A DNA stretch of 64,000 nucleotides from Chloroflexota bacterium (lineage in GTDB: Bacteria > Chloroflexota > Anaerolineae > Anaerolineales > Anaerolineaceae): the NCBI GenBank assembly GCA_029561345.1, contig JAKQJC010000043.1, forward strand, positions 181,958-245,957, read 5' to 3'. Every line of letters begins with the position of its first letter. Position 1 is the stretch's first letter. A program made the translations under genes and the position numbers. Shown here piece after piece: positions 996 to 2,591 of the stretch. The notes under the pieces were generated by a model, which worked only from the letters and a program-made list of their open reading frames with translations, was not told where the DNA came from and made no database searches.

Positions 996-1553
996 TCAGG
1001 CTGGGCGCTCGTCTTCTTCCAGTTCGGCCGCCACGTATTGATAGACTTCATCCAGCCCGGGCTGCCCCACCCAGCCTTTCAACGCCTGCACGGCGGCAGC
1101 GCGCACCGGCGCCTTGCCCGCCAGCAGGTAGCTGACAAAATTGGCGGCGTGCGGCGCCTCGGCGGGTTTCACCCCGCGCGCTGCCACGGCTGCCAGGGCG
1201 CGCGTCACCGCCAGGGCCGGATCGGCGGCAGTTTTCAATACCAGGCTGGCTTCCAGTGCCAGGCGGCTGGGGCCAAACCGCGCGGCGGCCAGGGCCAGTT
1301 CCCGTTCCACGTCCGCTCGTTCCGGGGCCGGTTCAAATTTGTTGTAGCGGTCAAGCAGCAGGCAAAAGCGCGCGGCAGCCTCTTCCGGCAGTTCATCACC
1401 AAAAGGTGCCAGCATTTCCGCCGTCAGCAGCGGCACCGCCACCGGTTCAAGCGTATCGTGGTGAAATTCCAGCGTTTCCAGGGCCTCAGAAACCCTTTCG
1501 GGCTGGCCCGATTTGATATCCGCGATAATCTCTTCAGCCGTTCGCCACATCAT
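996..1553 (-). CDS. hypothetical acidic protein; candidate immunity protein for the upstream toxin-like gene
   Basis: 185-aa ORF starting 12 nt downstream of the toxin-like gene on the same strand. No recognisable domain. The immunity role rests on position only. Confidence 0.55.
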   Translation of the reverse strand: MMWRTAEEIIADIKSGQPERVSEALETLEFHHDTLEPVAVPLLTAEMLAPFGDELPEEAAARFCLLLDRYNKFEPAPERADVERELALAAARFGPSRLALEASLVLKTAADPALAVTRALAAVAARGVKPAEAPHAANFVSYLLAGKAPVRAAAVQALKGWVGQPGLDEVYQYVAAELEEDERPA

Positions 1554-1565
1554 GTTTCCCTTCCC

Positions 1566-2591
1566 TTACGGAATCACCACTGTTTTGTCTTTGGGCCAGC
1601 CGGCCTTTAGCTGCCCGCGCGCCAGCGGATCAACGCCTGGCGGGGTCAATTTGGAGGTGCCGTCCGTGTTCCAGACGCTTGGATATAAGGTGATGCGGTT
1701 GTTCCACGTCTCCAGCCCACCGCGCATTTTCTGGTAGCGGTCGGTGGCGCGGGTGATCACTTTTTTGATTTTATCGAGGGTGTCGGTGTTTTTTACCGAA
1801 CTTTGCTTGGATTGAATTTCAGCCAGGCCTTCCTTGATCACCTTGCAGTAATCGCGCAGCTTGTAGGCATGGCCGGCGGGGCTGCGGAAGGGTTCGCCGT
1901 GCTCGGCCTCCCATTTCAGTGCCCATTCGCTGGTGCCGTCGCCCACCGAACCGGGGCGGTTGGTGCCGTCGGTTTCATCGCACAGGTGCGAAATTTGCTC
2001 CAGGCGCGCCTCCACCGATTCCACATCGGCGGCCTGTTTTTCCTTCAGGGCCTCGTCGAAATCCTCATCACTCATGGCCTTCTTAGTCCAGATGCTGTCG
2101 GCCTTGGCCTTGTCGTATTTGCCCGACTTTTTATCCCGGCAGGCATTGTCGCGGATGGGGACCGCCTTCGATTCGCCGTTCAGGGTGATGAACTGCGAAT
2201 ATCCCTTTTTGGCGGTGGGGTCCATGGCGTTCAAGCACTCTTCCCACCCATCAAACAGAGGTTCACGCTGAATGACCGGGGCTGGCGGCGCGCGGTGGAG
2301 ATCGGCGGCCAGCGGGTTGAGCTGGCGCAGGATGCGCCCCGCCGGCAGGGCAGCCGGCGCCGCAGGCGGCCGCGCCAGCAAAGCCGAAACGGCCTGGTTG
2401 CCCAGGCTGCGCTGCAGCGAAAGGAACTCATCGGCGCGCAGCGCGCGCGGATTGGCGCGGGCCCGCTGCAGCAGGGCAGACTCAGGCAGCAGGCTCACCT
2501 GTGCAGACAGGGTGGGCAAGGCGGCCTGCGCCGCAGGGGAGCGGTGGGCAGGCGTTTTGTCTGTTTTTTGTACGTGTTCCTTGGGGGCCAT
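1566..2591 (-). CDS. polymorphic-toxin-like protein (N-terminal LQRxxGNQAV motif region plus a lysine-rich C-terminal module of unknown family)
   Basis: N-terminus carries ALLQRARANP...LSLQRSLGNQAVSALL and PVIQREP motifs, typical of the N-terminal regions of DUF4157-type toxin proteins. Coding GC falls from about 75% at the N-terminus to about 50-55% in the C-terminal 200 aa. No HExxH is present. Confidence 0.6.
   Translation of the reverse strand: MAPKEHVQKTDKTPAHRSPAAQAALPTLSAQVSLLPESALLQRARANPRALRADEFLSLQRSLGNQAVSALLARPPAAPAALPAGRILRQLNPLAADLHRAPPAPVIQREPLFDGWEECLNAMDPTAKKGYSQFITLNGESKAVPIRDNACRDKKSGKYDKAKADSIWTKKAMSDEDFDEALKEKQAADVESVEARLEQISHLCDETDGTNRPGSVGDGTSEWALKWEAEHGEPFRSPAGHAYKLRDYCKVIKEGLAEIQSKQSSVKNTDTLDKIKKVITRATDRYQKMRGGLETWNNRITLYPSVWNTDGTSKLTPPGVDPLARGQLKAGWPKDKTVVIP

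Follow-up and report, generated by a model that had tools for sequence, protein, structure and literature searches.

A putative polymorphic toxin and its immunity protein encoded as a gene pair in an Anaerolineaceae genome

What task would pair a two-part protein of 341 amino acids (aa) with a small acidic protein encoded directly behind it? We pursued this question at a locus in a 64,000-nt stretch of DNA from a Chloroflexota bacterium of the Anaerolineaceae (contig JAKQJC010000043.1, positions 181,958 to 245,957), hereafter the window. An earlier reading of the bare sequence, the original prediction, had taken the two open reading frames (ORFs) for a polymorphic toxin with an exchangeable C-terminal module and an adjacent immunity gene. 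Both ORFs lie where that reading had placed them, 12 nt apart on the same minus strand, and encode 341 aa and 185 aa (Table 1). Having followed the C-terminal module and the downstream gene through their homologues, we conclude that the pair is very probably a toxin–immunity cassette of the polymorphic-toxin class.

A terminal module on unrelated carriers

Comparison with 14 close homologues divided the 341-aa protein at about residue 110. From there to residue 341 the sequences are 36–89% identical, and the N-termini are unrelated; this variable leader region includes eCIS_core (PF13699, formerly DUF4157) in some homologues (3 of the 14 close ones). The common part, predicted as a Lys-rich domain of about 200 aa, comprises 231 aa, 26 of which are Lys (11%).

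Among 1.84 billion cluster representatives, a profile built on the module retrieved 90 proteins at E ≤ 1e-3, 33 of them below 1e-30. The family collected in this way consists of representatives at 50% identity and spans at least 90 clusters. The module ends no more than 25 aa from the protein C-terminus in 82 of the 86 members that contain the core, and 23 members are 800–1753 aa long. Its carriers include proteins with eCIS_core (family members P0035, P0052, P0054 and P0060), RHS repeats (P0033), PT-HINT (P0092) and LysM/PG_binding domains (P0044). Among the trafficking domains on which the original prediction had proposed to look for the module, RHS was found, whereas LXG and CdiA fusions were absent from the proteins examined. 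Polymorphic toxins are defined by the recurrence of a single domain at the C-terminal end of trafficking architectures that are otherwise unrelated (Zhang et al. 2012, PMC3482391), and the module follows this pattern, sitting at the extreme C-terminus behind varied trafficking or repeat domains.

Two members, P0059 and P0060, carry Ntox1 (PF15500) upstream of the module and thus have two predicted toxin domains per polypeptide. Downstream of P0060 (locus L015, 6360–11294) we observed only one immunity-like gene, which belongs to the family of the 185-aa protein.

The original prediction had left the toxin fold unrecognised, with no HNH, AHH or ART signature. Consistent with this, neither the toxin nor the immunity protein matched Pfam or NCBIfam even at E ≤ 1, a close-subfamily profile returned only coiled-coil noise among PDB sequences, and Foldseek gave no module match in the PDB with E below 1; no housekeeping enzyme family appeared in any of these searches. 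Forty diverse family members, searched against Pfam at E ≤ 10, showed no recurring toxin family. Judged by sequence, no database model exists for the family of the toxin domain or for that of the immunity protein. A scan of GTDB genomes with the toxin profile gave no match, and neither did a scan of IMG/VR viral sequences, which showed no sign of phage carriage.

Base composition had been cited as a fit to toxin-module swapping, and here the data disagreed. The GC drop expected at about 20 points measured 13 (71.2% in codons 1–110 compared with 58.2% in codons 111–341), and it is the leader that stands out, among the highest 0.8% of 330-nt windows, with the C-terminal part at the mean of the whole window (58.6%). 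GC at third codon positions (GC3) is nearly equal in the leader and the C-terminal part (0.78 and 0.75), first-position GC being 0.80 and 0.56, so the shift reflects amino-acid composition and not foreign codon usage. An Ala/Pro/Arg-rich leader beside a Lys/Asp/Glu-rich folded domain produces it, and it is uninformative on recent acquisition. We therefore rejected the GC shift as a sign of horizontal module acquisition; because GC3 is unchanged, the evidence for module swapping is comparative, not compositional.

A downstream gene co-conserved with the module

If the 185-aa ORF encodes an immunity protein, it should accompany the module. A homologue lies directly 3′ of the toxin gene in 14 of the 15 assessable distinct loci, as the toxin–immunity reading would have it. 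Loci with a downstream homologue are L001, L003, L004 (Myxococcota), L010 (an RHS form), L011 and L012 (long DUF4157 forms), L014, L015, L017, L018, L019/L020, L021 and L023. The downstream homologues are 181–192 aa long and start 0–270 nt after the toxin stop codon; they are 26–57% identical to the 185-aa protein in the six loci aligned and otherwise reach an hhalign probability of 99.9%. At L016, where no immunity homologue follows, the toxin is a divergent PT-HINT protein with the domain in an internal position, and L022 offers only 29 nt of contig beyond the toxin. RHS, DUF4157 and short-leader forms of the module are followed by the 185-aa homologue alike. The adjacent downstream gene thereby co-varies with the toxin domain and not with the N-terminus, as is expected of a polymorphic toxin. 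Neither of the two findings that the original prediction had named as refuting it, a housekeeping match of the C-terminal domain or a downstream ORF never co-conserved with it, was obtained.

At L003 (8379–9182), the protein P0013 matches the module in two frames (8400–9020 and 9016–9126), with a frameshift near the 3′ end. Either the gene is a pseudogene or the assembly is in error at this point; the immunity gene that follows is intact.

The 185-aa protein is acidic (pI 4.72), as are all 12 of the 12 homologues aligned (pI 4.0–4.8), and its model is a HEAT-like, alpha-solenoid helical repeat (mean predicted local distance difference test score (pLDDT) 96.4). It matched no Pfam immunity family and has no DNA-binding domain. 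Its 13 detectable homologues lie on contigs that also hold toxin homologues. Helical-repeat immunity proteins are known from RHS and PT-HINT systems with Imm-HEAT immunity, a type listed for Ntox34 (Zhang et al. 2012, PMC3482391). Two relatives of the window toxin carry the module on such architectures (P0033 on RHS, P0092 on PT-HINT), whereas the window protein itself lacks both RHS repeats and HINT.

Orphan immunity genes are typical of polymorphic-toxin systems. One orphan emerged from a GTDB scan with the immunity profile, at L013 10001–10552 in a Myxococcota metagenome-assembled genome (MAG; JACKFA010000011.1), with 54% identity and no toxin module within ±10 kb. Upstream of it are a calpain-like ORF of 423 aa and a Cys-rich secreted ORF.

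A gene pair of this shape might also act wholly inside the cell, as a type II toxin–antitoxin (TA) or abortive-infection pair with a non-exported module. This we consider very improbable. It would suit a bicistronic unit that has its own promoter-like site and stands in housekeeping surroundings far from secretion genes, and also the classical TA modules near the L014 pair. However, the gene order is toxin first and immunity second, the immunity protein lacks a DNA-binding domain, and the 110-aa leader has a motif common to cargo proteins. Moreover, the same domain ends RHS, HINT and DUF4157 proteins of 1000–1750 aa, one of them within a baseplate cluster of a contractile injection system (CIS).

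An all-helical module with an invariant histidine

Structure prediction of the C-terminal domain, proposed earlier as a check, gave a confident model: AlphaFold2 folded residues 109–341 as entirely helical, with a pLDDT of 91.9. Four short helices and a long one are followed by a loop, a short helix, a second loop and two long helices, and the C-terminal tail is ordered but non-helical. Conservation is enzyme-like, with invariant polar residues. Across 74 members (window protein numbering), G217, E228, H241 and W296 are invariant, E222, K244, R285 and R299 are at least 92% conserved, and A224 and G232 at least 90%. The family signature reads ETDGTxRPxxxGDG[ST][ST]ExAxxxExxxGxP(4-10)HxxK ... 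RAxxR ... WNxR ... WNxDGTSK. Two other ideas were discarded. A HEPN motif (Rx4-6H), prompted by RSPAGH, was rejected, its Arg being replaced by K or F in homologues, and a conserved disulfide C204–C249 was dropped after the second Cys proved shifted or absent in distant members.

What chemistry would such a fold carry? Three independent lines, each of them weak, converge on Ntox28, the type of the tRNA anticodon nuclease CdiA-CT(EC536) (PDB 5j43, 5j5v). The catalytic acid of CdiA-CT(EC536) is H178; D155 binds Mg2+, W176 stabilises the transition state, and cleavage in the anticodon loop leaves a 2′,3′-cyclic phosphate and a 5′-OH (PMC11724271). When a 40-sequence profile of the module family was compared with all PDB sequences, 5j5v_B ranked fourth (E 0.44), its alignment placing long helix on long helix, G-x-P-...-H on GKPVPKENGGYWDH and H241 on H178. 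We then compared the same profile by hhalign with 15 Ntox28 proteins, an alignment (A4) recovered from fragments in the profile-versus-PDB output, and obtained E 3e-4 and a probability of 39–40% over 94–96 collinear columns. The score was 28.3; reversed alignments, run as controls, reached 15.7 and 15.2, and 100 column shuffles gave 10.9 ± 2.3, with a maximum of 18.9. In an unfiltered search with a hidden Markov model (HMM) of the 15 Ntox28 sequences, the highest score of a family member was 15.7 bits and that of reversed sequences 5.9; two of the alignments of family members were near full-length and had the histidine matched.

The module and Ntox28 have in common an all-alpha core of similar size and helix order (long helix, short helix, loop, His at the start of helix 3, helix 4, C-terminal tail), the invariant His on H178, the local sequence RATDxxxK[IM], and the position as C-terminal domains of polymorphic toxins. 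They differ in that the module family adds the ETDGTxRPxxxGDG loop, an N-terminal helical subdomain and the WNxDGTSK tail; in the 185-aa immunity protein, which is unrelated in size and fold class; and in their carriers, which are DUF4157, RHS and HINT proteins for the module and CdiA and WXG proteins for Ntox28.

Several results speak against a kinship with Ntox28. With hhalign, the narrower close-subfamily profile (A2) reached a probability of only 0.4% against Ntox28. Pfam Ntox28 (PF15605) matched neither the window protein at E ≤ 1 nor any of the 40 diverse members at E ≤ 10. Of the Ntox28 signature residues D, K[DE], [DN]HxxE and E (Zhang et al. 2012, PMC3482391), the His (H241) is the single one that is both conserved and aligned, and [DN]HxxE reads GHxxK in the module family. 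The counterpart of Mg-binding D155 is not consistently placed, falling on E222 in an ungapped helix register but on the ETDGT loop in the hhalign and HMM alignments. Finally, the module has a near-neutral pI (7.2; core 5.7), unlike the basic pI of many nucleases. Formal membership fails, and on these alignments the module is not filed as an Ntox28 member.

A toxin–immunity pair whose module is not an RNase is a serious candidate: the Ntox28 likeness would reflect a common four-helix arrangement, and the module might use other phosphotransfer or hydrolase chemistry or act on a protein or lipid target. The absence of Pfam Ntox28 matches and of Foldseek matches with E below 1, the Lys in place of the Glu of [DN]HxxE, and the loop and tail without Ntox28 counterparts are consistent with this explanation. 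On the other side, three independent methods singled out one toxin family from among 48,164 structures and 177,635 sequences, all four helices align in order, with the catalytic His at the centre, and the scores lie well above those of reversed and shuffled controls. It is possible, and as the leading hypothesis we propose it tentatively, that the module works as an all-helical, His-dependent RNase of the Ntox28/CdiA-CT(EC536) type. The toxin C-terminus (...PKDKTVVIP) has no GYGI tail, so dependence on CysK would not be expected.

The leader and the route of export

The leader is 35% Ala and Pro, poorly conserved outside its LQRxxGN motif and disordered-looking by composition. The LQRxxGNQAV and IQR elements recognised in the original prediction are both present, the first within LSLQRSLGNQAVSALL (residues 57–72) and the second as VIQRE (residues 106–110). 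Of the 67 family members with an N-terminal region, 15 contain LQ[RKQA]xxGN, usually 30–90 residues from the N-terminus; DUF4157 may accompany it or be absent, and some of these proteins also have a DUF4157-type HExxH motif. Directly N-terminal to the module, most close-subfamily members have [VI][QR]R[ED], whereas distant members have a Pro/Lys-rich linker in its place. That VIQRE might be a processing site is speculation.

These features recall the toxins associated with extracellular CISs (eCIS-associated toxins, EATs; the 'PVC-metallopeptidase' DUF4157/PF13699 group; PMC3482391, PMC8213781, PMC11297309). DUF4157 specifically marks eCIS toxins (PMC8213781; PMC11297309), and about half of predicted eCIS toxins contain it, most of these without another annotated domain (PMC11297309). 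For AlgoCIS, loading needs a disordered N-terminal region and DUF4157 is dispensable (bioRxiv 10.64898/2026.05.27.728243). The CIS-dependent secretome of the haloarchaeon Halogeometricum includes five DUF4157 proteins, two of them toxic, with toxicity prevented by downstream partner genes (PMC11566945). Like EATs, the window protein joins an N-terminal leader to a variable C-terminal toxin domain and has the LQRxxGNxA leader motif, several relatives fuse the same module to eCIS_core, and the immunity gene lies downstream, as it does for the haloarchaeal DUF4157 toxins. Unlike them, it has no DUF4157 or HExxH, no CIS gene was found within the 64 kb, and the module is absent from annotated toxin domains; most validated EATs also lack identifiable immunity genes, whereas the module family almost always has one.

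Two relatives stand at the 3′ end of CIS gene clusters. At L015, GPW_gp25, two Baseplate_J genes and Tail_P2_I are followed by the toxin P0060, the immunity homologue, DUF5675 and DUF4280, and at L014 a 917-aa ATPase with WHD and AAA domains and three fibre-like ORFs precede the toxin P0052. The three L014 ORFs are consecutive (330–4749; 455, 532 and 471 aa) and match the ORF that follows the baseplate genes of L015 (5370–6314) only in their N-terminal ~70–85 aa. From this common N-terminal segment, they are probably fibre-like proteins, which would fit interchangeable tail fibres. On the 3′ side of the L014 toxin–immunity pair (17000–23400) we also noted a dense TA island with two PIN/MazE-like pairs, PemK and BrnT/BrnA.

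For the window itself, the search for an injection system yielded points that count against export by a CIS. No CIS structural gene and no DUF4157 appeared among the ~35 larger ORFs scanned across the 64 kb, and tblastn of the window with the CIS proteins of L014 and L015 found no similarity. Only 2 of ~16 distinct loci adjoin CIS genes. As to the marks by which EATs are recognised, DUF4157/eCIS_core in the protein or within two genes is lacking for the 341-aa protein (Pfam at E ≤ 1; no HExxH) and present for its homologues P0008, P0009, P0013, P0035, P0052, P0054 and P0060; CIS core genes within about ten genes are lacking in the window and present at L015 and L014.

Export of the toxin by another route, through type VII-like machinery or by lysis, therefore had to be weighed. 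Besides the window scans without CIS genes or DUF4157, it could draw on a 1389-aa protein with triple FtsK_SpoIIIE, an EssC/EccC-like ATPase encoded 17 kb off (19486..23655), and on the presence of the module on RHS and PT-HINT proteins, whose export routes differ. Yet the leader has neither a WXG/LXG-type helical domain nor a Pfam match, the LQRxxGNxA motif recurs in family members, some of them with DUF4157, and close homologues carry eCIS_core. The EssC-like gene, for its part, is solitary among housekeeping genes, the small ORFs around it not having been searched for WXG100-type neighbours. We regard these other routes as improbable. By analogy with relatives and the literature, export in the host organism via a phage-tail-like CIS encoded elsewhere in the genome is somewhat favoured, and a leader-only orphan toxin–immunity pair fits the literature picture of CIS cargo.

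A model and its implications

Considered jointly, these lines of evidence are likely to be best explained by a polymorphic-toxin operon with CIS export and an RNase-type domain. The 341-aa protein would consist of a disordered-looking basic leader with the LQRxxGNxA motif typical of DUF4157/eCIS cargo, the VIQRE junction and a 231-aa helical toxin domain. In the producer cell, the HEAT-like 185-aa protein would most likely bind the module and neutralise it. The toxin would then most likely leave through a CIS encoded elsewhere in the genome, as its relatives suggest. In a target cell, if the remote similarity is a guide, the module would act as an Ntox28/CdiA-CT(EC536)-type tRNA-anticodon nuclease, with H241 as the putative catalytic acid and E222/E228, K244, R285 and R299 as candidate ligands of metal or phosphate.

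A more far-reaching version of this proposal seems doubtful to us. In that version, the module and its partner represent a widespread unmodelled toxin family with a dedicated HEAT-like immunity family; the toxins form a deeply diverged Ntox28 branch, mainly CIS cargo, and the leader motif, retained by short forms that lack DUF4157, would itself direct cargo into a CIS, even from a gene far from the CIS cluster.

The pair is an addition to a well-known and very diverse class, useful to specialists in CISs and polymorphic toxins, and in that sense unsurprising. Its value is that one such C-terminal domain gains a boundary, a confident predicted fold, a cognate immunity family and a testable candidate activity, cleavage of tRNA or RNA, with a shortlist of candidate catalytic residues (H241, E222, E228, K244, R285 and R299). 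Carriers with DUF4157, RHS or HINT and leader-only carriers all bear this toxin and form a natural set for the question of how CIS cargo is targeted. If the module is a nuclease, the helical fold of Ntox28 would reach beyond CdiA-, FilH- and WXG-type toxins, and engineered injection systems would gain a compact payload of 231 aa and the inhibitor that goes with it.

Transcription unit and genomic surroundings

Signals around the pair suggest how it might be expressed (Table 1). The ATG of the toxin gene is preceded, at 5 nt, by a Shine-Dalgarno-like GGGAGGA, and the 12-nt gap to the immunity gene includes a purine-rich Shine-Dalgarno-like stretch. The promoter-like site matches 10 of 12 consensus positions, the consensus being that of sigma-70, which may not be that of Chloroflexota; two such sites were found in the region, compared with 0.5 expected from shuffles. 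By these sequence signals, the pair appears to form a transcription unit of its own, complete with a promoter-like site. The palindrome at 932–965, between the immunity gene and an Fpg-family gene, could be a terminator hairpin or a protein-binding site.

Table 1. Coordinates of the gene pair, its parts and flanking signals (window positions)
Feature	Position	Strand	Description
Putative toxin gene	1566..2591	-	341 aa; HPH94583.1, annotated 'hypothetical protein', Anaerolineaceae bacterium MAG
Putative immunity gene	996..1553	-	185 aa (184 aa from second ATG), acidic, HEAT/ARM-like alpha-solenoid predicted; HPH94584.1, annotated 'hypothetical protein'
Leader, residues 1-110	2262..2591	-	Ala/Pro/Arg-rich, pI 11.6, no DUF4157/HExxH; proposed loading/trafficking sequence
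LQRSLGNQAV motif, residues 59-68	2388..2417	-	LQ[RKQA]xxGN common to 15/67 family members
VIQRE junction motif, residues 106-110	2262..2276	-	Directly before conserved C-terminal module
C-terminal putative toxin module, residues 111-341	1569..2261	-	All-alpha: helical N-subdomain, 4-helix core, ordered C-terminal tail
Most widely conserved core, ~residues 175-305	1677..2069	-	Carries the Ntox28-like similarity
Codons E222 to E228, short helix TSEWALKWE	1908..1928	-	E228 invariant, E222 96%; candidate metal-binding/general-base residues
H241 codon	1869..1871	-	Invariant in 74/74 members; aligned with catalytic H178 of CdiA-CT(EC536)
Codons R285, W296, R299, end of last long helix	1695..1739	-	W296 invariant; both Arg at least 92%
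Sigma-70-like promoter, TTGCCT + 16 nt + TATAAT, TG upstream	2665..2692	-	~74 nt 5′ of toxin start codon
Terminator-like hairpin + T-run	2931..2956	-	Closes upstream P-type ATPase gene; 5′ boundary of toxin operon
Perfect 17+17-nt palindrome (ACCACATTCACCCCTGG/CCAGGGGTGAATGTGGT)	932..965	.	No spacer, no T-run; 31 nt 3′ of immunity stop codon

The immediate neighbours of the pair are genes for a P-type ATPase and an Fpg-family glycosylase, in surroundings of ordinary chromosome that also hold a histidine-biosynthesis operon and genes for aconitase, isocitrate dehydrogenase and citrate synthase. The EssC/EccC-like gene (19486–23655, minus strand), whose product has three FtsK_SpoIIIE ATPase stretches in the architecture of a type VII ATPase, lies between the gene for a Kelch-repeat protein and that for aconitase. 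The Kelch protein (16489–18810, plus strand; 773 aa) has multiple repeats that form a beta-propeller, unusual in bacteria.

Three further regions drew our attention. At 6092–7756 (plus strand), two adjoining ORFs (289 and 254 aa) have a common membrane-domain motif, AAYNPF..Y.A..SLSLFAFV; the terminal segment of the second is weakly PARG/macro-like (E 0.13, GLGAWGCGAFGND), and the arrangement may have arisen by fusion or by a frameshift within one gene. A DUF4304 protein (E 2e-21) is encoded at 7713–8456 (minus strand) and overlaps by 4 nt the end of a 247-aa ORF (8453–9196) that has no Pfam match; direct comparison ruled out that these tandem ORFs are paralogues. The third region, at 51571–59952 (plus strand), encodes an N6/N4 DNA methylase, an XPB/ERCC3-like helicase (591 aa), a 731-aa protein without a Pfam match and a 754-aa Helicase_C_3 protein, a gene run that may be a defence or repair island.

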